DNA from: a virus
DNA: 64,000 nucleotides
Virus record (IMG/VR): IMGVR_UViG_3300045988_122718
Coordinates: 32,001 to 96,000 of that record
Reading direction: 5' to 3' (one strand)
The notes beneath the pieces were generated by a model that had not been told where the DNA came from, ran no database searches, and saw only the letters and a program-made list of their open reading frames with translations. Below, one piece after another: positions 989 through 40,490 of this stretch (within the stretch, counting starts at the first letter, position 1; every line of letters starts with the position of its first letter). A program made the position numbers and the translations under genes.

Positions 989-1022
989 TTATTATTTTAT
1001 GATTTAAAGGAGATTGACATAT

Positions 1023-2540
1023 ATGGCTAATAAGACTTTTAGTACACGTATTAAGAACAAAATTGATACTTATGCAAATTGGATTGATAAAGATCCTGTT
1101 CTGCTTAATGGTGAAATTGCCGTTGTAGTTATCCCTGCGGAAACTGGTGCTGTACAGGGCGAACCCGTTACTCTATTTAAGGTCGGTGACGGCACTAAGA
1201 ACTTTAGTCAGCTAGAGTTTACTGGTGCAAAGGCTGCTGATGTTTATGGTTGGGCTAAGGCTGCTACCAAGCCAGCGTATTCTGCTACCGAAATTACTGG
1301 TCTAGAAGCTTATATTGGTGAGAAGATTCAGGATACTGATACTCAGTATAAGCTAGAGGCTGATGCTGAAGATGGCCACAAGTTCTATCTATATTCTAAA
1401 GCCAAGGGTGATGAGGCTTTTGGTACTACGCCTGTAAGTACTATCACTATTCCTGAGACTGTATATACTCTAGCTACTGGTACTGCCAATGGTACTGTTA
1501 AATTTAATGGTACTGACGTTGCTGTTGCTGGTCTAGGTTCTGCCGCTTATACCGACTCTACCGCTTATGATGCTAATGGGGCCGCTCAGACCGCTGAGGA
1601 TAATGCTAAGGCACATGCTGACACGAAGGATTCTGCTATTGCAGCCGCCAAGAAAGCTGGTACTGATGCTCAGGCCGCAGTAGATACTCTTTCTGGTAAG
1701 GTGGGTACAGTCGCCGAGGGCAAGACTGTTGTTGAAATGATTGCTGACGCTCAGACCGCTGCAACTTATAATGATACCGAGGTTAAGGCCGGTATCAAGG
1801 CCAATGCTGATGCTATCACTAAGCTAAATGGTACTTCTGCAGTTGAAGGTTCTGTTGACAAGAAGGTAGCTGACGCTATTAATGAGTTTGCCACTAAGGT
1901 TAGCGACGATAAAACCGTCAATACCTTTAAGGAGCTAATTGATTATGCCGCTTCTCACCAAGGTGAATATAGCACTCTGTCTGGCGAAGTTCAGGCTAAC
2001 AAGACTGCTATTGCCACTCTAAACGGCAAAGATACTGACGCTGGTTCTGTAGCAAAGACTGTTAAGGATGCCGTTCATGCCGCACAGGCTACCCTTCAGG
2101 GCGACATTGACAAGAAGGTTGACAAGGTAGAAGGTAAGGATCTATCTACCAACGACTATACCAACGATGAAAAGACCAAGCTAGAAGGCATCGCCACTGG
2201 CGCTCAGGTCAACGTCATTGAGACTGTTAAGGTTAATGGCGTCGCACTAACTCCTGCCGATAAAGCCGTTGACGTTACTGTACCTACTGGCACTCTTGCT
2301 TCTAAGGATAAGGTTGCCGAGACCGACCTTGTAGACGCTCTTGCTACAAAGATCAATGGTAAGCTAGATGCTTCTGAGGTTACTGGGGACCTTCTGACTC
2401 ATAACGCTTCTGAGTTTGCCGCAGCCGATCACAATCATGACGATACTTATTCTAAGCTAGACCACAATCATAAGATTGATGACCTAGAGCAGAGTGCTTA
2501 TATTATTTTCGACTGTGGTACTGCTAGTACCATTATCTAA
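1023..2540 (+). CDS. tail fibre protein with Mtd-like N-terminal domain
   Basis: AAGGAG at 1007-1012 favours the ATG at 1023 (MANKTFSTRIKNK...) over the track start at 1014. The N-terminus (ANW..DPVLL.GE....FKVGDGTK.FSQL) resembles the major-tropism-determinant N-terminal fibre module and is paralogous to the CDS at 11615. It also carries a GKDLSTNDYTNDEKTKLEGI motif and C-terminal DHNH repeats. Confidence 0.75.
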   Translation: MANKTFSTRIKNKIDTYANWIDKDPVLLNGEIAVVVIPAETGAVQGEPVTLFKVGDGTKNFSQLEFTGAKAADVYGWAKAATKPAYSATEITGLEAYIGEKIQDTDTQYKLEADAEDGHKFYLYSKAKGDEAFGTTPVSTITIPETVYTLATGTANGTVKFNGTDVAVAGLGSAAYTDSTAYDANGAAQTAEDNAKAHADTKDSAIAAAKKAGTDAQAAVDTLSGKVGTVAEGKTVVEMIADAQTAATYNDTEVKAGIKANADAITKLNGTSAVEGSVDKKVADAINEFATKVSDDKTVNTFKELIDYAASHQGEYSTLSGEVQANKTAIATLNGKDTDAGSVAKTVKDAVHAAQATLQGDIDKKVDKVEGKDLSTNDYTNDEKTKLEGIATGAQVNVIETVKVNGVALTPADKAVDVTVPTGTLASKDKVAETDLVDALATKINGKLDASEVTGDLLTHNASEFAAADHNHDDTYSKLDHNHKIDDLEQSAYIIFDCGTASTII

Positions 2541-2577
2541 GTGGCATTGCCTCTTCACATTAAGTAGTTTATTTAAT

Positions 2578-2608
2578 AGGAGAGGCATTACGCCTCTCCT
2601 ATTTTTTT
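2578..2608 (+). terminator. rho-independent terminator
   Basis: A perfect 9-bp stem (AGGAGAGGC, loop ATTAC, GCCTCTCCT) is followed by ATTTTTTT. Confidence 0.8.
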
Positions 2609-2635
2609 AGACTATACAAGGAGGAATGAAAACTA

Positions 2636-5600
2636 ATGGCCTATATAAATAAAGTTACTGTTAGAGGCAGAACATACAATTTAGAGAATCTAACGGATGG
2701 TACTCACATTGTTAGATTGCCTATTTTAAGTGGAGATGATGTTTTTGTTACAGAAAAGACATTACAAACCGGTGTAAAGGCATCTGAGCTTACTGATGGT
2801 ACTCATACTGTTAGTTTGCCAAAAAATTTAACAAAAGATGATACATTCGTTCTACAAAGTGTACAAGACAAAGTTAATGATAATAAAGTTGATAAGGTAA
2901 GTGGTAAGGGTTTATCAACAAATGACTATACTACCCCAGAAAAGAATAAGCTTTCTGGTATTGAAGATGGAGCGAACAAATATATTCATCCTATTTATAA
3001 CACAAGAGTATCTGGTCTATATAAAATTACAGTTGATAGCACCGGTCATGTTAGTGATGTAAGTGAGGTTACAAAGGACGACATTACTGGTCTTGGCATA
3101 ACTGATGGTACGGATGCAGTTACTCAGGCCAACGCATATACTGATAAGGCTATTTCTGAATATGAACCTTATTCTATTGAAGTTGTAGGCACACTACCAG
3201 AATCTGGTGAAGATAGAACTTTCTATCTTGTTCCTAATGAATCCAAAACTGGTTATACGAAATACTGGTGGATTACCGACAATGGCGAACAAAAGTGGGA
3301 TGAGTTTAAGGGCGCTTCTACTGTAGTTGTGACCGAACTTCCAACAACTGGTGAGAAAGAAACAGATTATATCCTATATTCTGATGCAGGATGTTTTTAC
3401 TACAAATGGATTGACAACGAATGGAAGATGGTTGCGGGAACTGTTGCCCATATTGTAAATGAACTACCACAGACCGGAAACGAATATTCAGATTACTATG
3501 TGAAAAACACCGATGGTTCATATGTACATTATCGTTATATTGACGGTGCATTCTGCATAATTGGTGGAGACACATATAACAAAACACAAGTAGATAATAA
3601 AATTTCAACATTAAAGACTGATATTGATTCAAATACCACAAACATTACTTCTCTAAGCCGCACAGTTGATGGTATCAGACAAGATTTGGATAGTCTTGAT
3701 ACAGAGGGTTATACTTACTACGCTACTTATGGCAATGCTACTCTTGCGACTGGAGACGAAGCAGAAAACGTATTTACACTTTATGAAGTTAAAAATGAAA
3801 AAGAAGAAGTTAAAAGTCAGTTTGTAATTACTGGTGGCGGCGGCGGAGGCACTACAACCACTACTCTTAAGGTTGAGCGTATTACCGAGTCTCCTGTTAT
3901 TGTCACAACAACTGACAAAGTAGAAATAAGCTTCAACTATTCTTCAACAGATAGCGATGGAGAGGCAGTTGATGGTACTTATACTTGGAAACTCGGAAAT
4001 ACCGTTCTATCCACTGGAGCATTAGTTCAGGGTGTTAATACTTTTGACATGACTGAACATGTGAATATTGGCACTCAAAAATTTGTTTTAACAGTTGTAG
4101 ACGCCGCTGGTAGTGTTGCAGTTAAATCTTGGACTGTGCAAAAGGTTGATGTCAGACTTGAATCTTCATTTAGCGACAAGATTGCATATGAAGCTAACAA
4201 GTCTGTGAACTTTACATATACACCATATGGTGCAATAAACAAAACTGTGCATTTTGTTCTCGATGGGGCTGAAATAGGGACTGTTGCTACAAGTTCATCT
4301 GGTACACTACAGTCTTATACACTCCCAGCTCAAGAACACGGAGCACATTTACTTGAGTGTTACATTACTGCAACGATTAATGGAAAGAGCGTCGAAACGG
4401 ATCATATATTTAAAGATATAATTTGGTATGATGAAAATAGTGAGGCCCCCGTCATTGGTTGTGTTTATAGATATGACCACTATGGCAAGGTGGAGGCTAA
4501 GCAGTATAACTCTACAAACATTCCATTCTATGTATTTGATCCAAAGACAGAAACACCAACTATTACGAGAAGTGTTGACGGGAAGGTTATCGCAACTCAA
4601 ACTATGTCTGGCACATCAGATGTTTGGGCGTATAAATCTTCTGATATTGGTGAACATACGCTTACTATTACTTGCAATAGTACAACACTAACGATTGTAA
4701 TGGACATTAAGGAACTTGGCATTACTATTGAGCCAATTACTGCTAATCTCGCATTTGACTTTAACCCAACTGGTCTATCGAACAGTGATGAAGACAGACT
4801 ATGGAAAGACAGTAGCATGAATGTTAATATGACTGTTTCTGACAACTTCGACTGGTCAAATGGTGGGTATCAGATTGATAGTGATGGCAATCAGTATTTC
4901 TGTGTAAAAGCCGGAACAACTGCGACTATTAATTATAACCTATTTGAGAGAGATGCAAGCGCTTATGGTTCTGAATTTAAGTGCATTTTTAAGACTACGA
5001 ATGTTAGAAAAGCAAACGCAACGTTTTTGACTTGTCAAGCAGACTCTACCGTTGTTGGTTTGGAAATGAATGTTCATGAAGCGTATTTGAAGTCTAGTAT
5101 TAAGAGTCTGTATATTCCTTATAGTGAGGAAGATGTTATTGAGTTTGAGTTTAACATTAACTCACTCGATAAAGATAATCCAGACGCAACAGCCGTTATT
5201 ATGAGCTATGAGGACGGTGTTGGTTTAAGACCAATGATTTATGATTCTACTCATAGGTTGTATCAGTACGAGCCTGTCCCTATTACTATTGGCTCTACAG
5301 ATTGTGATGTTCATATTTATCGTATGAAAGCTTATACTTCTGCTCTGACTGATTCTAACATTCTTTCTAACTTTATTGCAGATGCCAGAGATTCTGATGA
5401 AATGATTGCAAGATATAACCGTAATCAGATTTATGATGAAAACAATGCTTTAACTCCTGAATCTGTAGCAAATGCTTGTCCTCAGTTGAGGGTCATTAAG
5501 ATTGAGTGTCCACACTTTACTAATGATAAGAAAGACTATGTTAAGGGAACGAATGTTGAGTGCATTTATAAGGGTGGAGATCCCGTACTAGATAACTGGA

Positions 5601-8600
5601 AGTTTATTAATTGCTACCATGCTGGTCAGGGAACTACTTCTAACGAATATGGTTATGCTGGTAGAAACATTGATATCATCATGTGTGCAGATGGTAAGAA
5701 TCAGATTGTTAGCAAAATCCCTCTGGATACAGAGTATGTAACAGAACTTATTCTTGGAGATGGAACGAAGTATAGTGATGGTTCTGGTAAAGTGAGTTTG
5801 TCTAGAACTTCTGTGCCAAATAACTGGTTTAACATAAAGGTCAACATAGCTTCTTCAGAAAACGCAAATAATGCTTTGCTTCAGAAGAGATATAATGACT
5901 ATCTACCATACAAAACTGTCGCTATGGAGAATAATCCGAAATGCAAGAATAGTATGGAGTTTTACAACTGTGTAGTGTTTATCAAGGAGACGGATCCTGA
6001 TGTTTCTCAACACAGAGAATTTAAGGATAACGATTGGCACTTCTATGCTATTGGTAATATTGGCGATAGTAAGAAGACCGATGCTACTCGTGTAAATGAT
6101 GTAGAAGACTTGAAAGAATACGTTATTGAGGTAAGTGATAATACGCTACCAAATAGCACCTTCCAGACTGGTGTTACAGATAGCGATGGCAAGATGGTTT
6201 ATCCTATCACTAAAGATCAGTGGAAAGCAGGAAATACTGCTTATGATGCCCTATATAATGATTGGGACGGCTCTTTCGAGTTCCGCTATGATATGGGTGG
6301 TGAAACCAAAGATGGTGCAAGTTTAGCAACATCCGAAGAAAAAGAAGCACAGAGACTTCTAAATAAGCAAGTATGGCGTGATTTCTATGAGTGGGTTATT
6401 ACGTCTACTGATGAAGAATTTGTTTCACAGTTTGGTGATTGGTTCATCAAAGATTCTGCTTTGTATTGGTATTTATTTACCGAGAGATATACCATGATCG
6501 ATAATCGCGCAAAGAATACTTTTTTCCACTATGCAAAATGTGCAGATGGCAAGTATCGTTTTGAACTGTGGGATTATGATAACGACAGTGCTTTGGGCAT
6601 AAACAATTCAGGCGAATTAACAATGGCCTATGGAAAAGAAGATACAGACTATAAGACGGATGGGGACCCATCCTCTGGCTACATCTTCAATGCGGCAGAT
6701 AGTGTATTGTGGTGTCGTATTCGTGATTTGATGAAAAATGATCTAGCAACAATGTATCAGACTCTTGATAGTAGCGGTTGCTGGAGTGACACTTCTCTAA
6801 TTAATGAATTTGATAATTGGCAGGCACAATTCCCAGAAGAACTCTGGAGACTTGATATTGAGCGTAAGTATTATCGTACATATCAAGGCGGTGGCTTAAA
6901 TGGTGGTTTAGAGCCAGAGCCAACTCCTCGTTTCCTGGCCACCATGATGAATGGACGTAAGAAGTATCAGCGTAGACAATTTGAGCGTGACCAGGCTGCT
7001 TATATGGGAACCAAATATTTGTCTACGACCGTCAAAGCAGATCAAATCATGTTTAGATGCAACACTCCTTCTGGTGTAGTTGTTGCACCTAACTATACGT
7101 TAAACATTGTGCCATATTCTGATATGTATTTGTCAGTGTTGTTTGGTAACTCTCCAAGTGCCCAACAGATTCGTGCAAAAGCTGGGCAGACATACGAAAT
7201 CACCTGCCCACTTACCAAGATGGATGATACAGCAGTACTGATTTATTGTGCTTCTCGTATTCAGGCACTAAATGATATTTCTGCCTGTTATATTCACGAT
7301 AACGACTTTTCAAAAGCTTCCAAGCTTCAGAAACTAATTATCGGTAACAGCACATCTGGATATTCTAATCAGTTCTTAACAAACTTAAACCTTGGTAACA
7401 ATGCACTCTTAGAAGAATTAGATATTTGTAACTGCCCCAATCTGACTGGCTCTATCAACCTTTCAAGCTGTGGCAACCTAGAGAAACTTTATGCCGAAGG
7501 TACTTCAATTACTGGTGTATTGTTCGCCTCTAATGGTAAAATTGCCTTAGCTCATCTACCAGGAACTATTAACAGTTTGACATTAAAGAATCTGAAGTAT
7601 CTTACTGATTTATTGGCAACTTATGGCAACCTTGAGTCTTTGACAGTTGAGAACTCTATCGTAGACGAATACTCTATTGTTGAGGATGCTATAGATACAT
7701 TACAGATTTTGAGATTGGTCGGTATAGACTGGACGGTTACAAATACTGATTTGTTAAACAAGATTCTCAAGATGAATAATAGCATGCTTGCTGGTAAAGT
7801 TCATATTGCAGGTCAAGCAAGACAGAGAGAATTAGATGCTTATGCAGCCGCATGGCCTGATTTAACTGTTACCTATAATGGTATTATTACTCAGTATAAA
7901 GTTACGTTTATGAATGCCGATGGCACTCCAATTAAAGATAAAAAGGGTAATGATTATGTTCAGTATGTTGATCAAGGTGGAAAAGCTGTCGATCCAATTA
8001 TGAGTGGTGAAATTGATACTCCGACAATTGCTAGTACAGAACAATATAATTATACTTTCTCTGGCTGGGATGGCATTAATACAAATGTCACCGCCGCAAT
8101 GACTGTTACTGCAAAATATAATGAAACAATTAGAACATATACTGTTCGTTGGTTCCAGCAACCCGGTGTTGTTTGGGAAACAAAAGAAAATGTTGAATAC
8201 GGAACTGGTGTGTTCCCAGACAAAGACAATCCTACTATGAATGATAATGAGGATTCCTATATTTATAACATCTTTACTGGATGGGATAAAAATACTGGCT
8301 TTATTACTGGCAATACAGACGTTTATGCAAAGTGGGAGACTCAAAATGGTTTACCGCAATCTGGCACAGAACTAAAAGATATGACGCCAGTTCAAGTGTA
8401 TGCAGTTGTGGCAGCAGGTAAAGCCAACGATTATTTTGAGCAAAAAGACTATATTGATGTTCGCATGGGCAATGACTACTCTTTCACTAATGTTACAGAA
8501 AATGTTTTAGCAGAGGAAAAATATTTCGATGGCACTACTTCTAAAGTTATAGATACCGGAATAAAACTATTTGGCGCAGATTCTGCTTCTTTTACAATGG

Positions 8601-9589
8601 CAATTGACTTTGAGTTTGACAGCGCCGCTGCGTCTGATGACACGTTGTTGTCTTGTTTTGAATATGATGGAGCAGAAGGTTTCAGACTAAAGTTTAATGG
8701 TACAAGTCCAGAAATTCAATGGGGCAGCGCCAGTCAGGTAGTTGGCTATGGAGCCAAGAGAGACCTAGTTGTGCTGCGTCACGTGAAGGGTGAAGATAAG
8801 CTATATATCTATTCTTTCAATGGAGCTGCTGGATCAAGTAATATATATGCAGATGAAATTGAATATACCGAATTGACCCGTAACCATAGTACAAGCACAG
8901 AAGCAACAATAGTTCTTGGTGGATTTAAGTTCTTATCGAATGGTACTATTGATAATATGGGTAAAGGCTATATTCATTGGGCAAAGGTATGGCTCGAAGA
9001 TTTGGGCGATTCTATTGCTAGAGATTTAGCTGCATGGCCTCATGAAACTATTCGTTTTGAGTATTATGGAAGTGAGCGTTATAGATTCGCTAATGATTCT
9101 AGCCGCAAGACTGGTGCTTCATTTATTGCAAAAGATTTATTGTCTTATGAACATTATATGAATCCAACAAATACAAATGTTGGCGGCTGGGAAGATTCTT
9201 CTATGAGACATTTTATGAATTCTAGAGTATATGAAGCATTCCCGACAGTGTGGAAGTCAATTCTTAAGAAGGTACAAATACCGACAAGTGCTGGTGGAGG
9301 CTCTCAAGAAATTATTTTCTCAAAAGACTATGTTTATGCTCCGTCTTATGTTGAGCTTTCTGGTATTCAGACAGTACCTTATGTAAACGAAGGTAGTCAT
9401 ATTACGTGGTTTACTGATGATGCTTCAAGAGTAAAGACTAGAAATGGTGTTGCGAAAGGATATTATGGTAGATCTGCTATTATCAACTACAATACGTATT
9501 TCGTCTATACTAATGAGCAAGGTGCATGCAATAACATGTATATAGTGTCGAGCAGAAACAGTGGTATTTGTATATGTGTTTCAGTGTAA
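2636..9589 (+). CDS. giant (2317 aa) multidomain receptor-binding/structural protein (fibre adaptor N-terminus; CotH-like, LRR, Listeria-Bacteroides repeat and LamG-like regions)
   Basis: RBS AAGGAGGAA lies upstream. The N-terminus MAYINKVTVRGRTYNLENLTDG..V.LP is paralogous to the CDS at 10414. A CotH-like signature is present (IDNRAKNTFFHY...ELWDYDNDSALG). An LRR stretch follows (LNLGNNALLEELDICNCPNLTGSINLSSCGNLEKLYAEGTSI). Two or three Flg_new-like repeats are present (YKVTFMNADGT...YTFSGWD; YTVRWF...IFTGWDKNTG). Confidence 0.75.
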   Translation: MAYINKVTVRGRTYNLENLTDGTHIVRLPILSGDDVFVTEKTLQTGVKASELTDGTHTVSLPKNLTKDDTFVLQSVQDKVNDNKVDKVSGKGLSTNDYTTPEKNKLSGIEDGANKYIHPIYNTRVSGLYKITVDSTGHVSDVSEVTKDDITGLGITDGTDAVTQANAYTDKAISEYEPYSIEVVGTLPESGEDRTFYLVPNESKTGYTKYWWITDNGEQKWDEFKGASTVVVTELPTTGEKETDYILYSDAGCFYYKWIDNEWKMVAGTVAHIVNELPQTGNEYSDYYVKNTDGSYVHYRYIDGAFCIIGGDTYNKTQVDNKISTLKTDIDSNTTNITSLSRTVDGIRQDLDSLDTEGYTYYATYGNATLATGDEAENVFTLYEVKNEKEEVKSQFVITGGGGGGTTTTTLKVERITESPVIVTTTDKVEISFNYSSTDSDGEAVDGTYTWKLGNTVLSTGALVQGVNTFDMTEHVNIGTQKFVLTVVDAAGSVAVKSWTVQKVDVRLESSFSDKIAYEANKSVNFTYTPYGAINKTVHFVLDGAEIGTVATSSSGTLQSYTLPAQEHGAHLLECYITATINGKSVETDHIFKDIIWYDENSEAPVIGCVYRYDHYGKVEAKQYNSTNIPFYVFDPKTETPTITRSVDGKVIATQTMSGTSDVWAYKSSDIGEHTLTITCNSTTLTIVMDIKELGITIEPITANLAFDFNPTGLSNSDEDRLWKDSSMNVNMTVSDNFDWSNGGYQIDSDGNQYFCVKAGTTATINYNLFERDASAYGSEFKCIFKTTNVRKANATFLTCQADSTVVGLEMNVHEAYLKSSIKSLYIPYSEEDVIEFEFNINSLDKDNPDATAVIMSYEDGVGLRPMIYDSTHRLYQYEPVPITIGSTDCDVHIYRMKAYTSALTDSNILSNFIADARDSDEMIARYNRNQIYDENNALTPESVANACPQLRVIKIECPHFTNDKKDYVKGTNVECIYKGGDPVLDNWKFINCYHAGQGTTSNEYGYAGRNIDIIMCADGKNQIVSKIPLDTEYVTELILGDGTKYSDGSGKVSLSRTSVPNNWFNIKVNIASSENANNALLQKRYNDYLPYKTVAMENNPKCKNSMEFYNCVVFIKETDPDVSQHREFKDNDWHFYAIGNIGDSKKTDATRVNDVEDLKEYVIEVSDNTLPNSTFQTGVTDSDGKMVYPITKDQWKAGNTAYDALYNDWDGSFEFRYDMGGETKDGASLATSEEKEAQRLLNKQVWRDFYEWVITSTDEEFVSQFGDWFIKDSALYWYLFTERYTMIDNRAKNTFFHYAKCADGKYRFELWDYDNDSALGINNSGELTMAYGKEDTDYKTDGDPSSGYIFNAADSVLWCRIRDLMKNDLATMYQTLDSSGCWSDTSLINEFDNWQAQFPEELWRLDIERKYYRTYQGGGLNGGLEPEPTPRFLATMMNGRKKYQRRQFERDQAAYMGTKYLSTTVKADQIMFRCNTPSGVVVAPNYTLNIVPYSDMYLSVLFGNSPSAQQIRAKAGQTYEITCPLTKMDDTAVLIYCASRIQALNDISACYIHDNDFSKASKLQKLIIGNSTSGYSNQFLTNLNLGNNALLEELDICNCPNLTGSINLSSCGNLEKLYAEGTSITGVLFASNGKIALAHLPGTINSLTLKNLKYLTDLLATYGNLESLTVENSIVDEYSIVEDAIDTLQILRLVGIDWTVTNTDLLNKILKMNNSMLAGKVHIAGQARQRELDAYAAAWPDLTVTYNGIITQYKVTFMNADGTPIKDKKGNDYVQYVDQGGKAVDPIMSGEIDTPTIASTEQYNYTFSGWDGINTNVTAAMTVTAKYNETIRTYTVRWFQQPGVVWETKENVEYGTGVFPDKDNPTMNDNEDSYIYNIFTGWDKNTGFITGNTDVYAKWETQNGLPQSGTELKDMTPVQVYAVVAAGKANDYFEQKDYIDVRMGNDYSFTNVTENVLAEEKYFDGTTSKVIDTGIKLFGADSASFTMAIDFEFDSAAASDDTLLSCFEYDGAEGFRLKFNGTSPEIQWGSASQVVGYGAKRDLVVLRHVKGEDKLYIYSFNGAAGSSNIYADEIEYTELTRNHSTSTEATIVLGGFKFLSNGTIDNMGKGYIHWAKVWLEDLGDSIARDLAAWPHETIRFEYYGSERYRFANDSSRKTGASFIAKDLLSYEHYMNPTNTNVGGWEDSSMRHFMNSRVYEAFPTVWKSILKKVQIPTSAGGGSQEIIFSKDYVYAPSYVELSGIQTVPYVNEGSHITWFTDDASRVKTRNGVAKGYYGRSAIINYNTYFVYTNEQGACNNMYIVSSRNSGICICVSV

Positions 9590-10413: not shown

Positions 10414-11553
10414 ATGTCCTACATAAATACTATTGATATTAATGGAGTAGTATATAATTTAGGTAGTTTAACTGACGGTAATTATGAAGTTAATTTACCA
10501 CCAAATTTAAAAAATAATGATGTTTTCTTATTGCAAGGAGATGTTGTTAGTAATTTGGTTACACAGTCAAATATGCCACTTGCTGCAAGTCAAGGCAAGG
10601 CCCTTAATGACAAGATTAGTGAACTAAAAACGAGTTCTACAAACCAAGGAAACGACATTACACAGTTAAGAACGGCTATAAAAACAGGAGACTCTACGAC
10701 ATTATCTAGTGCAAAGTCGTATGCAGATGGTAAAGACACGGAACTTGATGGAAAAATTACGGCCCTCAGAACAGACATGGGTACTAATGATACGTCAACA
10801 TTGACATCCGCAAAATCATATACTGACACAAAATGCGGGGATACATTGACTTCTGCAAAAACATATTCGGACAATGGTTTTATAAATAAAACAAATATAG
10901 CAGACAATCTTACTACTGATTCTGCTGACAAAGTTTTATCTGCAAAACAAGGCAAAGCGTTAGAAGATAAAAAGTTTAATAAGGCAGGAGGAACTATTTC
11001 TGGAGCAGTAACTATAAATGGTGCTCTTACAATTGGTGGCTCTAATGGAATTAGTGTTAGTAAGGTTCCGACCGCAAACAATGATGTAGTAAATAAGAAA
11101 TACGTTGATGACAAAATTTCTGGCTATAGTATAGCTGATGATTCGATAACAACTGCAATGATTGTTGATGGTGCAATTACAAAGGCAAAACTAGGAACGG
11201 ACATTGCTTTAGACTCAAGTGAAATTGGTACAACAACCGAAGGTTGGACATATATAAAAATGAGTAACGGTGTTGCGATTGCCTGGGGTAGTTTTGAAAA
11301 TAGTGCTGGAGTTGGTTCTAGTGGTGAATTTTCTGAAGCATATCCAACCGGATTGTTTATAAATGCACCAGCTTGTACACCATTTTTGTATGCAAGTGGG
11401 CAAGATGTTGTCCAATTTAGTAAAGATGCTGGTGATAAGGATAATACACCAAAGATTGGTGTTCACTTATTGAGTTCAATACTTAAACCGGGCACATCAG
11501 AAGCATTGGGAACTATCAAAATTGACTATATTGCAATTGGTAAATGGAAATAA
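10414..11553 (+). CDS. tail fibre protein
   Basis: GGAGGTG at 10402-10408 favours the ATG at 10414 (MSYINTIDINGVVYNLGSLTDG). The track start at 10375 lies inside the terminator. The N-terminal adaptor is shared with the giant CDS at 2636, and SAKSY[AT]D repeats are present. Confidence 0.75.
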   Translation: MSYINTIDINGVVYNLGSLTDGNYEVNLPPNLKNNDVFLLQGDVVSNLVTQSNMPLAASQGKALNDKISELKTSSTNQGNDITQLRTAIKTGDSTTLSSAKSYADGKDTELDGKITALRTDMGTNDTSTLTSAKSYTDTKCGDTLTSAKTYSDNGFINKTNIADNLTTDSADKVLSAKQGKALEDKKFNKAGGTISGAVTINGALTIGGSNGISVSKVPTANNDVVNKKYVDDKISGYSIADDSITTAMIVDGAITKAKLGTDIALDSSEIGTTTEGWTYIKMSNGVAIAWGSFENSAGVGSSGEFSEAYPTGLFINAPACTPFLYASGQDVVQFSKDAGDKDNTPKIGVHLLSSILKPGTSEALGTIKIDYIAIGKWK

Positions 11554-11614
11554 TTGTCAATAAATCTATCGGCATATGTTGGTATTTTTATTTTGTATTA
11601 AGGAGGTAACACAA

Positions 11615-12496
11615 GTGGCAAACAAGACATTTAATACCCGCATTAAGAATAAGCGGGATACGAGTGCGAACTGGACTAGCAAAGACCCTGTTTTGTTAGA
11701 TGGCGAACTCATTATTGTTGACACAGCAAGTGGCGAGACAAGATTTAAAATTGGTGATGGCACCAAGAAATACTCACAGTTGCCATTCCAAGATGAGATT
11801 TTAAGAAATTCAAAAGTAGATTTGGACGCTGGTGTATATACTGCTACTGCTTCAAGCACTGATGGTATAGCATATTCTGCTACTGTTCCCGGTATTACTG
11901 CTTTAACCGCTGGCGCTAGTTTTATTATGATCCCAAATAAAGCAAGTACAAGCAAGGCACCAACATTAAATGTTAGCGGATTAGGCGCAAAGCCAATTAG
12001 GCGCAGACTAAGCTCTCTAACAACTAGCTTACAGCAAGGATATAGTACTAACTGGATTGCCCTCAATAAGCCGTTTACTGTAGTATATGATGGTACAGCA
12101 TGGGTTGTTGAAGGTCTGACAAAAACTGATGGTGCAGATGTGTATGGAGCAGTTGCACAAGCTACGGCAGATGCGAACGGAAACAACATTGCAGAGACAT
12201 ATGCTACGATTGTTATGCTGCAAAGTCTGTTGCCAAAGGTCACAACAATTACACTGACATCTAATTGGGTTGGAGATGCAAGCCCATATTATCAGGATAT
12301 TGCACTAAGTTGTGTAACAGAGACAAGCATTGTTGATTTGCAGCCAACGCCAGAGCAGCTTAACTCTTGGCAGGATGATGGGATTGCATTTACAACTTTG
12401 AGCGGAAATGGTACTGTGCGTGTTTATGTAGCTGGCGGTAAGCCAAGCAGCGCAATTTCAGTACAAGTTAGAGTACAGGAGGTGACGGTTATATGA
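11615..12496 (+). CDS. tail fibre protein with Mtd-like N-terminal domain (GTG start)
   Basis: AAGGAGG at 11600-11607 is followed by GTG at 11615, giving (M)ANKTFNTRIKNKRDTSANW..DPVLLDGE...FKIGDGTKKYSQL. This aligns with the N-terminus of the CDS at 1023. The track ATG at 11576 has no RBS. Confidence 0.7.
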   Translation: MANKTFNTRIKNKRDTSANWTSKDPVLLDGELIIVDTASGETRFKIGDGTKKYSQLPFQDEILRNSKVDLDAGVYTATASSTDGIAYSATVPGITALTAGASFIMIPNKASTSKAPTLNVSGLGAKPIRRRLSSLTTSLQQGYSTNWIALNKPFTVVYDGTAWVVEGLTKTDGADVYGAVAQATADANGNNIAETYATIVMLQSLLPKVTTITLTSNWVGDASPYYQDIALSCVTETSIVDLQPTPEQLNSWQDDGIAFTTLSGNGTVRVYVAGGKPSSAISVQVRVQEVTVI

Positions 12497-14319: not shown

Positions 14320-15150
14320 ATGTCAACTAAAAAATTACAAATTGTAACTCCTATTGTAACATCAGTTAATGGAGAAACTGGCGATGTTACATTAAATTCA
14401 GTTCAATATACCCCCCAAACTCTAACCCACGCCCAAAAGGCTCAGGCTCGTAATAATATAGGTGCGGCTTCTAAAGATATTGCAACCACATCAGCAAACG
14501 GCTTAATGAGTTCTACAGATAAAACCAAACTGGATGGTATTGCCAAAGGTGCAAATAAGACTACTGTAGATACCACTCTATCAACTACTTCTACTAACCC
14601 TGTGCAAAATAAAGTAGTAAAAGCTGCATTAGATGGAAAGGCTTCATCTTCTCATACCCATGATGAATATCTGTCTCACCCAATTCAGTTGCAAGAAAAT
14701 ACTGATTATGGGACAACTTTACCATCCAGTCCTACGAATGGACGTTTGTTCTTCCAAGAGACTTCTGTCACTAGTTTGATTGATTTAGTTTATCCAGTTG
14801 GCGCGGTGTATATTTCAATGAACCAGACTTCACCACAAACCTTATTCGGTGGCACTTGGACGCAGATTCAAGGCAGATTTTTGATTGGCGCTAGCACTGC
14901 TTATCCTGCCGGGTCAACTGGCGGTGAAGCTACTCATACACTAACTGCTTCTGAAATACCAAACCACACACATAGTTTCAAATATACTGGGCAAGCTATA
15001 ACAACTGGTGTTAATGCCATTCGTTTGTATCAGGCGGAGTCTAACCAGTATAATGCTTATTCTGGCGGCCAGTCATCCGACTGTGGTGGCCAAGCACATA
15101 ACAACCTTCCCCCATATATGGCAGTCTACATGTGGACGAGAACTGCTTAA
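14320..15150 (+). CDS. tail fibre protein with phage tail-collar domain
   Basis: RBS AAGGAGGAGG lies upstream. Motifs include LMSSTDKTKLDGIAKGANK and SSSHTHDEY. The C-terminus (VGAVYISMNQTSPQTLFGGTWTQIQGRFLIG...GGEATHTLTASEIPNHTHSF) matches the tail-collar domain pattern. Confidence 0.75.
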   Translation: MSTKKLQIVTPIVTSVNGETGDVTLNSVQYTPQTLTHAQKAQARNNIGAASKDIATTSANGLMSSTDKTKLDGIAKGANKTTVDTTLSTTSTNPVQNKVVKAALDGKASSSHTHDEYLSHPIQLQENTDYGTTLPSSPTNGRLFFQETSVTSLIDLVYPVGAVYISMNQTSPQTLFGGTWTQIQGRFLIGASTAYPAGSTGGEATHTLTASEIPNHTHSFKYTGQAITTGVNAIRLYQAESNQYNAYSGGQSSDCGGQAHNNLPPYMAVYMWTRTA

Positions 15151-15990: not shown

Positions 15991-18615
15991 ATGGCTCTTT
16001 CAAAAAGAACTTATGTGGGCGGCACCACAAAAATTACTGCCACAAACTTAAATGATATACAAGATTCAATTATTGCCTTGGAAGGTAAAGGAATAACAAA
16101 AGAAGAAGTTATTAACGCATTGGAATATACGCCTGCAAAAGCTAGTGATATTCCAACTACTGATATTTCTGCCAATACGGCGGCGAGACATTCCCATAGT
16201 AATAAGGATGTTTTAGATAATATAACTGAAATTGCAAGTATTTCTGGCGGAGCGGTTACTGGGGGTGTTAACGCACTTGTTACCAAAGAGATACTAGATG
16301 CTACTAGTCAACTGATTATGGATGAGATACCAACGGCCTTGAAAAACCCCCATGCACTTACTTTTACCGGTGCAGCCTCTGGAACGTATGATGGTTCAAG
16401 TGCAGTTACGATAAATATTCCAAGTGGAATTTCTTATGTAAACGTAAAAGATTATGGAGCAAAAGGTGATGGTGTAACTGACGATACGACAGCTGTGCAA
16501 AACGCACTTAATGCGGCTCAAGGCAAAACGCTTGTTATTGACGGAGTTTGCAAAATTACTGCACCTTTAGTTGTTAAAGACAATACCGAAATTATCGGTA
16601 TAGGTAGCCGTGCAAGCGGATTTGACAGCCATGTTGCAGGCACACTTTTCACAAGCGAAAACGCCAACGGTATTTATAAGTGCTTGTTTGAAAATTTAAG
16701 ACTCCGCAATCGTAACCTGTCTTCTACAGACACTGACGGACAATATGTCGGTCAAGTGTTCAGCTCTCTTTACGAAAGCAGAGTGACTGAGTGCTATGTT
16801 GAGCATTTTGCACAGATTTGTAGCAGAATGGCTCGTATCTCGTCAATCGACCACTGTGAGATGTACTATGTTAACAAGTCGCTCGTCAACGATGTAATTG
16901 ACTCGATGATTGAGTCAAACTACATAAACGCAAGAAATAATGCGGCAGGCCGAACAATAATGGTCTATGGATTGTTTAGCAACTCGATGTTCGCAAACAA
17001 TTTCTGCGACTACTGGGGAACTGCGTTTAGACTCGAATCCGGTAGCAAACCGAGTAATGTTATTGGCAACACATTCGACAACTGTGTATCGGTTTTCCGT
17101 GACTATGTAGTAGGATTAAGCATTGTAGGCAACAACTATACCAACATCAAGTATGTGTCTGCTAATTGGCAAGCTGGAGGTCAGCCGTCTGCGACAATTC
17201 AGGGTACTAAGTGGAGTGTATTCAAGTTTGATGGCGCAACAGCTTCTCACACAGGCGCATCTACACAGTGCTGTTTGCGCGATACAACATTCAACTCAAA
17301 CACTTTCAGCAATTGCTCCTACTATATAGATGTCGAAAATGGTGTTTCTGTTTATCCTGTTCAGCAATGCAAATTCTCCGACAATGCGTGGGAAGGTTTA
17401 CTTGTCGATGCCGCTTTCACTAATCCGCAAAGCGCATATGACAACGGCGGTATGCGGACAGTCTATTTTGACTTCTGGGAAGGACAAAGTGTAGATGTAC
17501 TTCCGTCCGCAAACCTTGTTAGCAACTCGGCAAAATCGGTTTTCACCTATGACGGACTGAATTTGTGGTATAAAAAGAGAGAAATCCGCAACTTCAACGG
17601 AGCGTGGAGATTCGCTGACGGCTCAATCTTGTCAAATGAAATTTGGGATTTGGCAGACAAAACTTATTTATCCAGAACTGTTGTGGCAAACAAATCGAGA
17701 ACATATTCAACGGAACATTGGTACAAAGTTAGTTATAATGGCTCAGAGTACACTGACGCTGGCTATGCGGGCAATCCTATAGTTTCCAACATTACCAAAA
17801 ATGGATTTACAATTCAGACCAAGAATACGCAGACGGGATTAGGTTTTTATCTGCCTTACGGCGCATTTACATTCTCAGCAACACTACCGACAGGCATAGA
17901 GGCATATTTGCTTGTTGTTCTTGCAAGCGGCATAGTCGAAAGTCGCAATCAAGTTGCAAGCGGTGCTACGCTTAATTGCAACGATGTGTCTAAGAGCTAT
18001 GTGTTGTTGTTTTGCAGCCGCACCACAATTGGCACTTATTCTGTGAACAACATCAGCATTAGGGATAATTCGTATGCGGAGGTCTCGACTGCGCCGTATT
18101 ACCCGAAGGAAGAAAGTCAAACAAAGAGCATCGCAGACATCGCAGGCTACTACACAAGTGACACGGTAGAGGGAGCACTTGCGGAAATCGGCGGCACACT
18201 TGACGAACTTAAGGATGCTTCAGGTATTACAATAGTAGACTCTGAACTTTCTGCCACATCAACGCATCCAGTCCAAAACAAAGTTATAAAGTCTGCGCTT
18301 GATGGGAAGCTGTCTACCTCTGGTGGCACTTTGACTGGCAACTTGACTGGTAAATACATAACTGGTACTTGGCTTAAGACCACTGACGCATCTGAGCTTT
18401 CGACAACTCCAGCGAAAATTGCTGTTTTAGATTCTACCGGATGGATTTATTATAGAACATTGGATCAGTTAAAGAGTGACCTTGGAGTTGGGAGTGGTAG
18501 CGGTAGTTCAAATCTTCCTGCTATTACAACTTCCGATAATGAAAAATTTCTACAAGTTGTAAACGGTGCGTGGTCTGCAGTTTCAATTCCTAGTGGTGAA
18601 GGAGTGAATTTCTAA
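15991..18615 (+). CDS. tailspike with right-handed beta-helix (pectate lyase 3-like) depolymerase domain
   Basis: RBS AAGGAGGAGGTG lies upstream. The hallmark VNVKDYGAKGDGVTDDTTAVQNALNAA is followed by a long Asn/Gly-rich region consistent with a beta-helix. The C-terminus carries a fibre motif (SATSTHPVQNKVIKSALDGK). Confidence 0.75.
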   Translation: MALSKRTYVGGTTKITATNLNDIQDSIIALEGKGITKEEVINALEYTPAKASDIPTTDISANTAARHSHSNKDVLDNITEIASISGGAVTGGVNALVTKEILDATSQLIMDEIPTALKNPHALTFTGAASGTYDGSSAVTINIPSGISYVNVKDYGAKGDGVTDDTTAVQNALNAAQGKTLVIDGVCKITAPLVVKDNTEIIGIGSRASGFDSHVAGTLFTSENANGIYKCLFENLRLRNRNLSSTDTDGQYVGQVFSSLYESRVTECYVEHFAQICSRMARISSIDHCEMYYVNKSLVNDVIDSMIESNYINARNNAAGRTIMVYGLFSNSMFANNFCDYWGTAFRLESGSKPSNVIGNTFDNCVSVFRDYVVGLSIVGNNYTNIKYVSANWQAGGQPSATIQGTKWSVFKFDGATASHTGASTQCCLRDTTFNSNTFSNCSYYIDVENGVSVYPVQQCKFSDNAWEGLLVDAAFTNPQSAYDNGGMRTVYFDFWEGQSVDVLPSANLVSNSAKSVFTYDGLNLWYKKREIRNFNGAWRFADGSILSNEIWDLADKTYLSRTVVANKSRTYSTEHWYKVSYNGSEYTDAGYAGNPIVSNITKNGFTIQTKNTQTGLGFYLPYGAFTFSATLPTGIEAYLLVVLASGIVESRNQVASGATLNCNDVSKSYVLLFCSRTTIGTYSVNNISIRDNSYAEVSTAPYYPKEESQTKSIADIAGYYTSDTVEGALAEIGGTLDELKDASGITIVDSELSATSTHPVQNKVIKSALDGKLSTSGGTLTGNLTGKYITGTWLKTTDASELSTTPAKIAVLDSTGWIYYRTLDQLKSDLGVGSGSGSSNLPAITTSDNEKFLQVVNGAWSAVSIPSGEGVNF

Positions 18616-19169: not shown

Positions 19170-20177
19170 ATGGCAAAAGTTTTTTTATCCCCAAGCGAAC
19201 AATTCAATAATTCCTACGCGTGGGGCAATACTACCGAAGGTGTGCAGTGTGGCAAGATTGCTAATGCTTGTAAGTCTGCACTTGAGCGTTGTGGCATCTC
19301 TGTAAAGCTACAGCATGAAGGTACGATGGCTAGTAAGTGTCAAGCTTCTGATGCTTTTGGTGCAGATTTACATGTTTGTATTCATACCAATGCTTGCAAT
19401 GGTAAGGTGAGTGGTACTCGTATGTTCTGCCATGACGCAAGTGGTAAAGGCATGAAGGCTTGTAGGGCTATTTTTAGCGTACTTGCACCTTTGACGCCCG
19501 GCAAGAGCGAGAATATTTCAGTTAATCCGCAGCTATATGAAATTCGTGTGCCAAATGCTCCTACTGCTTATATTGAGTGTGAGTTCCATGATGTGCCCAG
19601 CGTAGCAAAGTGGATTGTGGAGCATACTACTGATATTGGTGAAGCTATCGCTCATGGTATTTGCAATTACTTTGGTGTGACTTATAAGACAGCAAAGCCT
19701 GCTCCTGCCCCTACTCCAAAACCAACTCCTACTCCTTCTAAGAGTGAATTATATCGTGTACGTAAGAGTTGGGCGGATGCTGCTTCTCAGATTGGTGCAT
19801 TTGCAGTACTTGACAATGCTATTCGCGCTTGCAAGGAAGGCTATAAGGTATTTGATAGCAAGGGTAACGTTGTATATCCAAAGGCTGCTCCTGCAAAGAA
19901 GCCTATTGCTGTAATTGCCCATGAAGTAATTGAGGGTAAGTGGGGTAATGGCCAGGATAGAAAGAACAGACTAACTGCTGCTGGATATAATTACGACGAA
20001 GTACAGAATTATGTGAACAAGCTACTGTCTGCTCCTGCGAAAAAGAGCATTGATGAGGTCGCAAGAGAAGTTATTGCTGGTAAATGGGGCAATGGTGCAG
20101 ACCGTAAGAATAGACTAACCGCTGCTGGTTATGATTATGATGCAGTACAAAAGAGAGTAAATGAAATCCTCTCATAA
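19170..20177 (+). CDS. endolysin: N-acetylmuramoyl-L-alanine amidase with two Cpl-7 (CW_7) cell-wall-binding repeats
   Basis: Amidase_3-like pattern (ADLHVCIHTNA ... AYIECEFHD), a Pro-rich linker (PAPAPTPKPTPTPS), and two repeats of EVI.GKWGNG.DRKNRLTAAGY.YD.VQ..VN. Confidence 0.8.
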   Translation: MAKVFLSPSEQFNNSYAWGNTTEGVQCGKIANACKSALERCGISVKLQHEGTMASKCQASDAFGADLHVCIHTNACNGKVSGTRMFCHDASGKGMKACRAIFSVLAPLTPGKSENISVNPQLYEIRVPNAPTAYIECEFHDVPSVAKWIVEHTTDIGEAIAHGICNYFGVTYKTAKPAPAPTPKPTPTPSKSELYRVRKSWADAASQIGAFAVLDNAIRACKEGYKVFDSKGNVVYPKAAPAKKPIAVIAHEVIEGKWGNGQDRKNRLTAAGYNYDEVQNYVNKLLSAPAKKSIDEVAREVIAGKWGNGADRKNRLTAAGYDYDAVQKRVNEILS

Positions 20178-31500: not shown

Positions 31501-31642
31501 TTAACGGAACTGAAGAAAGTTACTGATGAGACCGATGCAACATATGCACAATTTTTAAAAACAATGTCTAAAACCGGTGCCGAGGTTGGAGCCACAGTGA
31601 AAGATTTAACAAATATGGCTGCAAACTGGGCGCGCCTAGGGT
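22507..31642 (+). CDS. tail tape measure protein, exon 1 (giant coiled-coil N-terminal part)
   Basis: RBS GAGGTGA lies upstream. About 3045 codons are K/E/Q-rich and coiled-coil-like. The exon ends in ...EVGATVKDLTNMAANWARLG, which is the start of the TP901-family TMP core motif. The proposed 5' splice site follows U31642. The unspliced frame stops 13 codons later at 31680. Confidence 0.7.
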
Positions 31643-38800: not shown

Positions 38801-40490
38801 TGAAAGTTTCCAAAACTCTATCAACCAGCTTCATTGGGATAACTTTGAAAAGTTCATTGATGCCATTGACAATGTTGGCAACGAAATTTCCAATCTAGGA
38901 GACCTAATCGACGAAGAAGACATTGTTGATGAAGTCGGTAATTGGACAGATAAAGGTATCACTGCACTTGGTTTGTATGCTCAAGAGATGGAACGTGCCA
39001 AATACAGAGCAGAACAGTATGGCAAAGAGATTGAGTATCTAAACCAAGAATATGCCGCTGGAAAGTATAGCGAAGATGAATATCTTGAGAAACTACAAGA
39101 ATTACGAGACGGCCAATGGGATAGCATTAAATCTTATGAGGCTGCAAAAAAGGCTATTGTTGATTTAAATAAAACTCGTATTGAGGCTATAAAAAATGGT
39201 ATTCAGAAAGAAATAGACGCTTATTCGGAACTTATTGACAAGAAGAAGGAAGAACTTAGCTTACAGAAAGAGTCACATGACTTCCAGAAGCAAGTAGCTG
39301 AACAGCAAAAAAATATTGCAAATATTCAAAAACAATTGGCTGCAATGGCCGGAGATAATTCTGCGTCTGCAATTGCTAGGAAAAAACAATTAGAAGCAGA
39401 ACTTGCCGCAGCACAAGAAGAACTCGATGAACTATATTATAATCATAGTGTTGAGAAGCAGCAAGAAGCACTTGATAAATCCTTAGAGAATTATCAGGAC
39501 AATAAGCAAGACGAAATGGACGCTCTTGACGAGTCTCTCAAGAACGAAGAACAAATCATTGCCGATAGTTATGCCACTATTACGGCAAATACGGAATCTG
39601 TAGCACAAACATTATCTGATATAGCAAGTCAGTATGGGATTACCCTATCTGATTCTGTTATGCAGCCTTGGCTAGATGGTGCTAACGCCATTGGTACTTA
39701 TCAAGAGCAGTTAGACACCTCTATGAGTTCTTTCACTCAGCAACTAGAGGCTCTTAAGCAGATGTATGCCGACTTACAAAATCAGGCTGATAGTGCTGGT
39801 AAGAGTATGGTTGATGCGATAAATGGTAGCAAGTCTAAAACAGAAGGTGCAACATATACGCCACCAATTCCATCACAACCAAGTACCCCATCAAAGCCAT
39901 CAAAACCATCTGCTCCATCTACTGGTTCGTCCGTTACAGTGAAAAAATCTGCAACACGCTTTTCAAGAGATGGTGGTAATGGTACTAGAATGCAGTCATG
40001 GGTCCCTGGTTCAACATTTACTGTTTATCAGGTTAGTGGTTCAGAAGTTCTAATTGGAAGAAATGGTCAATATACTGGATGGGTGCGTCTATCTGATATT
40101 GAAGGATATGCAAAGGGTACTAAAGAAATTCAAAATAACCAATTAGCAATGCTAGACGAACTTGGAGACGAGTTGGTTTTACATGCCGGTAAGAATGGCA
40201 GGTTAGAATATCTAACTAAGGGTACATCTGTTGTTCCAGCAGATATTACAAGCAACTTAATGAAGCTTGGCTCCTTAGACCCGAAGGATATTCTTGAAAG
40301 AAATAGACCTTCTATTGGTGCTCCACATGTTATTGATAATAGTATAGAGTTAAAAATGGAATTTGGCAGTCTTGTACATGTTGATACTGTTTCAAACGAT
40401 ACATTGCCATACTTGCAAAAGATGGTCAGAAATGAGTTTGATAATTGCATGAAACACGTAAATCAAGGGCTAAAGAAATTTGTTCGTTAA
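32863..40490 (+). CDS. tail tape measure protein, exon 2 (TMP core, TM segments, coiled coils, SH3b-like domain)
   Basis: The frame is open from 32856. It contains the canonical TP901-type core (LLNVSEFESADEASEALISTMQAYGYAAEDSMHVVDILNEIGNNFAISSDGLATALQDSASSL...ALRTISLRIRG) and hydrophobic segments. Conserved GELGPELRVRG...G and DELGDELVLHAG motifs are present. A Pro/Ser linker precedes an SH3b-like VTVKKSATRFSRDGG...GWVRLSDIEGY. Confidence 0.8.

Follow-up and report, generated by a model that had tools for sequence, protein, structure and literature searches.

In a 64,000-nucleotide stretch of viral DNA (positions 32,001 to 96,000 of IMG/VR record IMGVR_UViG_3300045988_122718; hereafter the window) we identified a gene for a protein of 2317 amino acids (aa), which we read with moderate confidence as a giant modular tail fibre: a variable lectin tip and leucine-rich repeats (LRRs) would bind the host surface, and a conserved central domain related to the Bacillus protein CotH would be an active nucleotide-dependent phosphotransferase. 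The gene (2636-9589, plus strand, as are the parts of the protein given below) is a single unbroken open reading frame (ORF) of 2317 codons. A GGAGG Shine-Dalgarno sequence was read directly from the sequence 11 nt before the ATG start codon (2620-2638, plus strand), and the start Met is the same Met at which the homologues begin. A strong terminator-like hairpin (2575-2603, plus strand; a 12-bp stem with six G-C pairs, then a T-run) stands between the giant gene and the preceding ORF of the fibre module, and the next ORF (9604) begins 15 nt past the stop codon. Promoter counts in the window were at chance level and uninformative, and searches of the window with Rfam and for tRNAs gave no match. 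A first-pass annotation, made from the letters of the DNA, had described a 2317-aa ORF and quoted a number of motifs. Both points were confirmed: the frame is uninterrupted and has its own ribosome-binding site, and every motif was located in the protein, namely GKGLSTNDYTTPEKNKLSGI (aa 90-109), GQGTTSNEYGYAGRNIDI (aa 997-1014), NIKVNIASSENANNALL (aa 1066-1082), IDNRAKNTFFHY (aa 1288-1299), ELWDYDNDSALG (aa 1310-1321), YTFSGWD and IFTGWD.

The centre of the protein (aa ~950-1460; 5483-7015) was assigned as a CotH-type atypical protein-kinase-like domain on the basis of a structural model, fold search, profile comparison and residue invariance. An AlphaFold2 model of aa 940-1560 was obtained with a predicted local distance difference test score (pLDDT) of 78 and a predicted template modelling score of 0.76. 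When this model was compared with the PDB using Foldseek, Bacillus cereus CotH was the only significant match (5jda, E 1.5e-8; 5jd9, E 2.4e-8). Both structures matched with a probability of 1.00 and a template modelling (TM) score of 0.54-0.55 normalised to the length of CotH, and the next PDB match had an E-value of 0.02 over 78 columns. A bridge at the sequence level was provided by Bacillus phage G protein gp353, which was found by tblastn with the domain of the giant protein (E 2e-6) and which itself scores above the CotH cut-off of Pfam (E 3e-16, 60 bits vs 23.8). Profile-profile comparison with hhalign of the family against gp353 and 15 other PF08757-positive proteins gave a probability of 95.8% (E 6.7e-9) over 372 columns, with four motifs in register: GQGTTSNEY with QGtSSlsY, KVNIASSENANN with LKANxIDxSHArN, MIDNRAKN with lDnLGKN, and YDNDTALG with YDlDStxG. 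Weak, sub-threshold Pfam CotH scores were obtained at the homologous positions of NatCom_3357 (E 0.0014) and of P0262, a 35%-identical member of the family (E 0.022), and Hankyphage also had a sub-threshold score (E 0.45). Taken together, the fold search, the sequence bridge, the profile-profile match and the weak matches in place establish that the central domain is homologous to CotH, with a predicted CotH-type fold. Both the fold and the homology to CotH proteins recognised by a hidden Markov model (HMM) were found, and the suggestion of the first-pass annotation that the centre of the protein is CotH-like is therefore supported.

The key residues of the domain are Q998-G-T-x-S1002, K1068, E1075, D1289-x3-K1293-N1294 and D1315-x-D1317. 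Their conservation was analysed in 150 representatives of different 50%-identity clusters, counting invariance where a position was covered. K1068, D1289, N1294, D1315 and D1317 were identical in all covering sequences (121-133 of the 150 representatives), and E1075 was kept in 110 of 128. The complete set of invariant positions comprises Q998, G999, T1000, S1002, Y1005, N1011, K1068, N1070, S1073, N1079, K1146, D1289, K1293, N1294, F1296, Y1314, D1315, D1317, N1324, G1326 and D1338, and the positions neighbouring the catalytic-type residues vary among the representatives. In the model, K1068 lies in a strand (1064-1069) which is directly followed by a helix (1073-1088) bearing E1075. The D1289-N-R-A-K1293-N1294 segment forms a loop between a helix and a beta-hairpin (1295-1313), and D1315-N-D1317 comes after this hairpin. 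This is the order of the beta3 lysine, the alphaC glutamate, the catalytic loop and the DFG aspartate in protein-kinase-like folds. K1068, D1289 (with N1294) and D1315/D1317 line up with the K, D..KN and YDxD that the HMM-positive CotH proteins conserve. According to PMC7821199, citing Nguyen 2016, the substitutions D228Q and D251A each inactivate the CotH of B. subtilis; these two positions are 23 residues apart, compared with 26-28 residues between D1289 and D1315/D1317. Motif and topology, rather than a residue-level alignment to 5JD9, suggest that K1068, D1289 and D1315/D1317 correspond to the active-site lysine, D228 (the catalytic aspartate) and D251 (the metal-binding aspartate) of CotH. 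As far as can be judged from the sequence, the active-site signature of the domain is intact, and from this we infer kinase activity.

In many near-identical relatives (L001 and L002 among them; 96-97% identity) gene calling splits the same protein into an ORF of 1322 aa and one of 987 aa, with ~1.05 kb between them. The insert (L001 9952-10999) is situated directly after the codon for D1317, corresponding to window position ~6586/6587, and the window copy lacks it. It carries a 255-aa ORF with weak matches to DUF5889, DUF2726 and DUF559 (endonucleases of the Vsr/PD-(D/E)XK type). The 5' exon ends in U, which could form a U·G pair with an internal guide GUCGUU that lies 8 nt from the start of the insert. 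The last nucleotide of the insert is G, and joining of the exons restores ...WDYDND/TGLGINNSGE..., with the slash at the junction. Rfam gave no match on the insert in the relatives, whether the gathering score or a limit of E<=0.1 was applied. The insert boundaries look like the hallmarks of a group I intron. Several more distant representatives of the family also break at the position of D1317. Homing typically targets sites that are critical for function, and homing of an intron into the D-x-D codons fits this being such a site.

The domain is embedded in a long series of modules. At the N-terminus, aa 1-160 (2636-3115) were identified as a putative fibre-attachment module with an internal LTDGTHxVxLP duplication and the motif VDKVxGKGLSTNDYTxxEKxKLxGI, matching phrog_38190 and phrog_18608. 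The duplication was also noted as 'LTDGTHxVxLP...DDxFV' occurring twice (aa 19-44 and 52-77) within 2636-3600. Residues 1-40 are 46% identical (E 2e-6) to aa 14-54 of ORF 10375, a neighbouring fibre gene which reads from the ATG at 10414 (10414-11553, plus strand; Pfam Phage_fiber_rpt, E 3e-12) and shares its N-terminal ~45 aa with the giant protein. Residues 67-128, which contain VDKVSGKGLSTNDYTTPEKNKLSGI, are 47% identical (E 7e-9) to aa 351-410 of ORF 1014 (1014-2540, plus strand), an upstream fibre-module gene in which N-terminal sequence comparison located the LSTNDYT..EK.KL motif. The paralogy is real on the evidence of these alignments and appears confined to short attachment-type modules. 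The first-pass annotation was therefore right to describe a fibre-adaptor N-terminus with a GLSTNDYT motif, paralogous to the fibre at 10414, but the latter similarity is short. The giant gene lies within a fibre module and has an attachment region in common with other fibres. Most relatives carry a different N-terminal region of ~310 aa.

The attachment module is followed by a probable shaft (aa 175-360; 3158-3715) consisting of three ~45-aa 'ELPxxGE...Y' repeats, starting at aa 187, 235 and 277, and a predicted coiled coil. The 'ELPxxGE...Y...W' repeats (aa 187-320) are invariant across the family. Profile comparison of this region with fibritin and reovirus sigma-1 gave chance-level matches only (E~1). 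A weak Pfam Gram_pos_anchor match (E 0.013) falls on one of these internal repeats, 'ELPTTGE' at aa 233-243, instead of on a C-terminal sorting signal. On this ground, and as the N-terminus shows no stretch resembling a signal peptide, a sortase-anchored surface protein was rejected. Between the coiled coil and the first immunoglobulin (Ig)-like domain there is a low-complexity linker, GGGGGGTTTTT (aa 400-411; 3833-3868), which is conserved in the family and may act as a hinge or be a place of modification. The Ig/PKD-like beta-sandwich region (aa ~395-700; 3818-4735) showed marginal profile matches to collagenase PKD domains (E 0.016) and is homologous to Hankyphage aa 332-662 (96%) and NatCom_3357 aa 147-409 (99.9%) in profile comparison. 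It is followed by a first ConA-like, Laminin_G_3-type (LamG) domain (aa ~726-934; 4811-5437), which was absent from the domains listed by the first-pass annotation. For this segment Pfam gave no direct Laminin_G match (E<=10), and hhalign aligned it with 98.6-98.8% probability to Hankyphage aa 653-904, which match Pfam Laminin_G_3 with an E-value of 8e-9. Downstream of the kinase-like domain a beta-sandwich was found (aa ~1465-1555; 7028-7300; strands at 531-618 of the first model), which corresponds to NatCom_3357 aa 1080-1174 (97.5%).

The C-terminal third was covered by a second AlphaFold model (aa 1540-2317, pLDDT 90). Residues ~1560-1750 (7313-7885) form a regular ladder of short strands (pLDDT ~90) predicted to be an LRR solenoid, with internalin B as Foldseek match (E 1e-6). 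Direct Pfam matches to LRR_4 and LRR_1 were at chance level (E 1.2-3.6). The region aligns with 78-99.8% probability with NatCom_3357 (LRR_4, E 0.008), with gp353, where it overlaps the start of an LRR_EndoS match, and with Hankyphage. Residues ~1752-1905 (7889-8350), with the motifs YTFSGWD and IFTGWD, are predicted to form two domains like the InlB B-repeat, also known as the Listeria-Bacteroides repeat. Here the Foldseek alignment to InlB residues 36-392 (LRR, inter-repeat region and B-repeat) spans the entire target, with a low TM score and no per-residue alignment. The homologous segment of NatCom_3357 has weak matches to Flg_new_2 (E 0.054) and Flg_new (E 0.11), and in the giant protein the YxFxGW motif occurs twice and the Pfam B-repeat families (PF09479 and PF18998) gave no match at E<=10. 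The LRRs and Flg_new repeats proposed in the first-pass annotation are accordingly upheld as predicted folds by the second model and its InlB match, and Pfam by itself recognised neither.

A second ConA-like lectin domain (aa ~1930-2165; 8423-9130) is lineage-specific and had no direct Pfam match. Its best Foldseek match was 6er3, the CBM40 domain of the R. gnavus IT-sialidase (E 6e-7, TM 0.63), and the sialidase CBM40 domains of C. perfringens and S. pneumoniae (NanJ, NanA) were also matched. Legume lectins, LNS domains and pentraxins matched with a probability of 1.0, scoring below CBM40. Of the two routes by which a ConA-like domain was sought, HMM or fold, it was found by fold, which also is what predicts it to be nearest to the sialic-acid-binding CBM40 modules; the earlier mention of a ConA/LamG-like segment near this end agrees with the model. 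The protein ends in DUF6273 (PF19789; aa 2178-2302; 9167-9541), a predicted C-type-lectin-like distal tip with a Pfam E-value of 7e-12 (46 bits vs a 23.5-bit cut-off; 52 bits when the isolated segment was searched), which is present in all full-length relatives. DUF6273 has been described as a C-type-lectin-like module of phage receptor-binding proteins that is hypermutated by diversity-generating retroelements (DGRs) (PMC10743442). The C-type-lectin nature of this tip had been missed by the first-pass annotation.

In a segment-wise profile comparison, aa ~361-1760 (Ig-like, LamG, CotH, beta-sandwich and LRR) were collinear with Hankyphage and NatCom_3357 and, more weakly, with gp353, and no counterpart of aa 1-360 or aa 1925-2317 was detected in any of these three. 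Judged by these alignments, the protein is built on a conserved core with exchangeable, lineage-specific ends. The closest known system is Hankyphage (Bacteroides phage p00, BK010646), whose 2245-aa DGR-target 'tail fibre' aligns with the core over its aa 332-1679 (hhalign 80-99% per segment). Like the protein described here it is a giant protein in tail-fibre position with a C-type-lectin-type tip; it is recorded as 'hypothetical protein' but regarded in the literature as the tail fibre, comes after a minor tail protein and has the DGR variable repeat at its C-terminus. The two proteins are only ~25% identical. The tip of the Hankyphage protein is formed by a DGR variable region, next to which lie a template repeat (TR) and a reverse transcriptase, and the giant protein has the B-repeats, CBM40-like domain and DUF6273 in its place; the N-terminal modules, the phyla of the hosts and the sizes of the genomes (43 kb vs ~150 kb) are different as well. 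Five peptides of the Hankyphage 'Tail fiber protein' were detected by mass spectrometry in particles precipitated with polyethylene glycol (PMC12135933, S6 Table). By analogy we infer that the giant fibre is located on the virion.

The 1673-aa homologue in NatCom_3357 (Ca. Heliusvirales) is encoded downstream of Dit, a few ORFs before the holin and endolysin genes. In gp353 of Bacillus phage G (2055 aa) the order of LamG, CotH and LRR is the same, and it matched the central model in Foldseek (E 5e-17), but it has 24% identity over ~320 aa, lacks the B-repeats and DUF6273, belongs to a jumbo phage and is equally uncharacterised. The atypical protein-kinase-like fold is common to Bacillus CotH (5JD9/5JDA; PF08757) and the giant protein, and the motifs QG(T/S)SS, K-x-N, D-x3-K-N and Y-D-x-D are shared with the Pfam-positive CotH relatives. 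Bacillus CotH itself is only ~10% identical and works on its own, as a ~360-aa enzyme of the mother-cell cytoplasm whose known substrates are CotB and CotG, whereas the domain of the giant fibre has ~260 extra inserted residues and no Pfam match and is embedded in 2317 aa. Proteins of uncultured gut phages labelled 'Spore coat protein H kinase fold' or 'CotH kinase protein' matched the central model in Foldseek with E 1e-18 to 1e-7. The crAss-like 'Spore coat protein-like protein' cr124_1 and 'Internalin-like protein' cr52_1 were among the same matches, several of which pair the domain with LRRs. These are annotation labels only, given to uncharacterised proteins that differ in size and flanking domains. 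Tentaclins and other receptor-binding proteins with DUF6273 (PMC10743442) share this domain as the receptor-contacting module of tail proteins, but tentaclins are ~570 aa long, have DUF6273 at the N-terminus, are DGR-hypermutated and lack the CotH, LRR and LamG core.

These comparisons changed two statements of the first-pass annotation. The architecture had been regarded as that of Firmicutes cell-surface proteins rather than of phage fibres. Only the C-terminal part resembles a Firmicutes surface protein, and the core is a phage tail-fibre cassette that is also present in Bacteroides phages, Hankyphage and NatCom_3357 among them. It had also been stated that a CotH domain on a phage particle would be functionally novel, which is overstated: Wu et al. 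(2018) noted weak CotH and Laminin_G_3 motifs in ~2000-aa DGR targets (category f1; PMC5758913), Benler (2021) noted CotH domains in phage proteins (PMC8008677), and such domains are labelled in records of uncultured phages. The kind of protein is thus known yet uncharacterised, and the giant protein adds to it a new member that Pfam does not see and that differs in tip and host.

DGR targeting of the giant gene was also considered and was rejected for the 64-kb window, outside which lie ~90 kb more of the genome; no pair of template and variable repeats was present in the window. There was no direct repeat of at least 60 nt involving the giant gene, the only repeat family being the CW_7 pair in the endolysin gene. 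No reverse transcriptase was found among the window ORFs scanned, a set which leaves out most ORFs of <200 aa beyond 16,000 and the ORFs 55456-56166 and 58366-59061. ORF 11576-12496, situated downstream of the giant gene, encodes an Mtd_N domain, the N-terminal domain of major tropism determinants, as fibres diversified by DGRs typically do. In relatives (L001) the big gene is preceded by two ORFs with Mtd_N.

In the mechanism that we propose, the short attachment module common to the sister fibres would dock the giant fibre on the tail, and the 'ELPxxGE' repeats and the coiled coil would form the shaft. The Ig-like domains, LamG, the CotH-type domain, the beta-sandwich and the LRR would follow as the conserved core, and the distal end would consist of the two InlB-type B-repeats, the CBM40-like lectin domain and the C-type-lectin-like DUF6273 tip. 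The lectin-type tip and the LRR would bind glycans or proteins of the host surface and so set host specificity, the equivalent tip of Hankyphage being DGR-diversified. The CotH-like domain, with its invariant Lys, Glu, D-x4-N and D-x-D, would be a catalytically competent nucleotide-dependent phosphotransferase which acts on an envelope component or on a virion partner during adsorption or assembly. A more far-reaching version, in which the fibre-borne phosphotransferase must chemically modify a glycan or protein of the host envelope for adsorption or DNA delivery to proceed, is put forward tentatively and is rather unlikely. An enzyme specific for teichoic acids or for Gram-positive hosts was set aside as the same core is found in Bacteroides phages.

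Several observations weigh against an active, virion-borne CotH-type enzyme. The giant protein does not reach the gathering score of Pfam PF08757. Searches with the whole protein (E<=1) and with eight segments (E<=10) gave no CotH, Flg_new or Laminin_G match, DUF6273 being the sole real match; NCBIfam gave nothing at E<=1, and four more full-length members of the family had no Pfam CotH match either. PDB sequence searches with the single protein and with a 35-sequence family profile yielded no CotH chain (with the profile, marginal matches to PKD domains and fibritin), and neither did searches with the CotH domain of gp353 and with the profile of the CotH group (E<=1 and E<=10). The Foldseek superposition has a root-mean-square deviation of 12 Å over ~500 columns, a result of large insertions. 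As to the virion, the Hankyphage particles used for mass spectrometry had been precipitated with polyethylene glycol, their fibre shares only ~25% identity with the giant protein, and the Dit/Tal-like genes of the window (41677-48345) do not adjoin the giant fibre gene. ATP is scarce outside cells, which leaves an extracellular kinase without an obvious phosphate donor. The first-pass annotation had named the lack of a CotH HMM hit as grounds for giving up the assignment. Formally there is no such hit, but this yardstick is too strict, the evidence from fold and profile comparison being positive.

The same divergence from the Pfam CotH model, the size of the insertions (621 aa vs 359 in 5jd9) and the small amount of ATP that a virion would meet in the gut lumen would suit a pseudokinase, i.e., a domain whose fold is kept as a scaffold or adhesin for structure or ligand binding, in a fibre that purely binds. 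The surface-exposed CotH invasins of Mucorales, which are thought to use the fold without catalysis, offer a parallel. A pseudokinase would, however, typically have lost the very residues that are retained here: the equivalents of the kinase lysine, the catalytic-loop Asp/Asn and the metal-binding aspartate are 100% invariant across the representatives of 50%-identity clusters while their neighbours vary, and the Pfam-positive CotH group keeps these motifs too. We therefore consider a non-catalytic domain possible but rather unlikely. The supply of ATP would not be a difficulty if the domain acted in the cytoplasm of the infected cell during morphogenesis, phosphorylating the fibre or other virion proteins and then riding on the virion as a spent enzyme. 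Bacillus CotH phosphorylates the coat proteins CotB and CotG and thereby directs assembly (PMC7821199), so that patterning of the spore coat provides an analogy, and the independence of the core from the host phylum (Bacteroides, Bacillus, Clostridia) would fit a substrate of the phage itself. Such a role is nevertheless unlikely in our view, as no Ser/Lys/Arg-rich repeat substrate like CotB or CotG was noticed in the fibre module and binding modules of the lectin and LRR types flank the domain in every case, suggesting an external target.

Finally, LRRs, B-repeats, ConA-like domains and DUF6273 are characteristic of surface proteins in Firmicutes, and a temperate phage could encode such a protein as a lysogenic-conversion factor, a surface or secreted adhesin that is no part of the virion and has a Firmicutes cell-surface architecture. 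This is very improbable. No signal-peptide-like hydrophobic stretch was seen at the N-terminus on reading the sequence, and the LPxTG-like 'ELPTTGE' is located in an N-terminal repeat instead of at the C-terminus. The N-terminus is common to fibre genes and the gene lies inside the fibre module on the same strand. Moreover, one homologue is the DGR-diversified tail fibre of Hankyphage, which was found in particle preparations, and the NatCom_3357 homologue is encoded between Dit and the holin/endolysin genes. A giant tail fibre with a lectin-type tip and a catalytically competent CotH-type domain remains the reading that we prefer.

The neighbours of the giant gene are fibre, baseplate and tailspike genes upstream of an endolysin gene, and the giant gene is on the same strand inside this module. 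ORF 9604 matches a tail-fibre PHROG and DUF4376, a Gp10_C baseplate-type protein is encoded at 14320-15150 and an 874-aa tailspike with a pectate-lyase fold at 15991-18615. With the Gp10_C protein and the tailspike in the same module, the phage seemingly bears several distinct host-binding or depolymerase appendages. The endolysin gene (19170-20177) encodes an Amidase_3 domain and two CW_7 repeats (19885-20008 and 20029-20152), and beyond it giant tape-measure-like ORFs, minor tail proteins, an integrase, ribonucleotide reductase and DNA ligase were found. In the region 22507-40490 two giant ORFs (3057 and 2527 aa) are parted by an HNH homing-endonuclease ORF (31793-32701), and the second opens with a PhageMin_Tail match that starts at position 52 of the profile. 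This suggests one tape-measure gene of ~5,600 aa that is broken by an endonuclease-bearing intron or insertion, and the tail would then be unusually long. Near 48-49 kb (48400-50288) both the coding strand and the GC skew flip, beside a tyrosine integrase gene on the minus strand (49137-50288).

The presence of this integrase indicates that the phage is temperate, and the CW_7 endolysin points to a Gram-positive host. Megablast against GenBank phages gave no match at the DNA level. In a scan of one genome per species the giant protein was found in Ruminococcus sp. AM36-2AA (on a 499-kb scaffold) and Ruminococcus sp. YE282; it is also present in many metagenome-assembled genomes, mostly labelled Clostridia, Lachnospiraceae or Eubacteriales. 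On the basis of the CW_7 endolysin and of the Ruminococcus isolates and Clostridia genomes that carry the protein, the host probably belongs to the gut Clostridia and is Ruminococcus-like, and the phage is probably a large (~150 kb) temperate tailed phage of these bacteria. The giant protein has 626 close homologues at E<=1e-3, many of which lie on 150-190 kb contigs. When aa 940-1560 served as sole query in an exhaustive search, 1,099 representatives of 50%-identity clusters were identified, nearly all from proteins of 2,000-4,000 aa. These numbers indicate that the reading frame is under selection. In the close family aa ~400-1700 are the most conserved and both ends are variable, DUF6273 being the least conserved part.

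Giant fibres built on an Ig-LamG-CotH-LRR core are very widespread in gut phages; the literature mentions them in passing but has never made them a subject of study. One of them is the receptor-binding protein of Hankyphage, a phage which is among the most widespread human gut phages. The analysis contributes a CotH bridge for a family that is invisible to Pfam, invariant residues to mutate, the recognition of the lectin-type tips, and cultured Ruminococcus lysogens for tests. If the domain is inactive, the family would show on a large scale how nature has turned a kinase fold to structural or binding use, and if it is active, phage adsorption would involve enzymatic chemistry that has not yet been described. 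Should the protein prove to be an envelope-modifying phosphotransferase, it would represent a new class of virion-borne enzymes, distinct from depolymerases and lysins, conserved in >1,000 sequence clusters of Bacteroidota and Firmicutes phages and coupled to exchangeable or DGR-diversified lectin tips.

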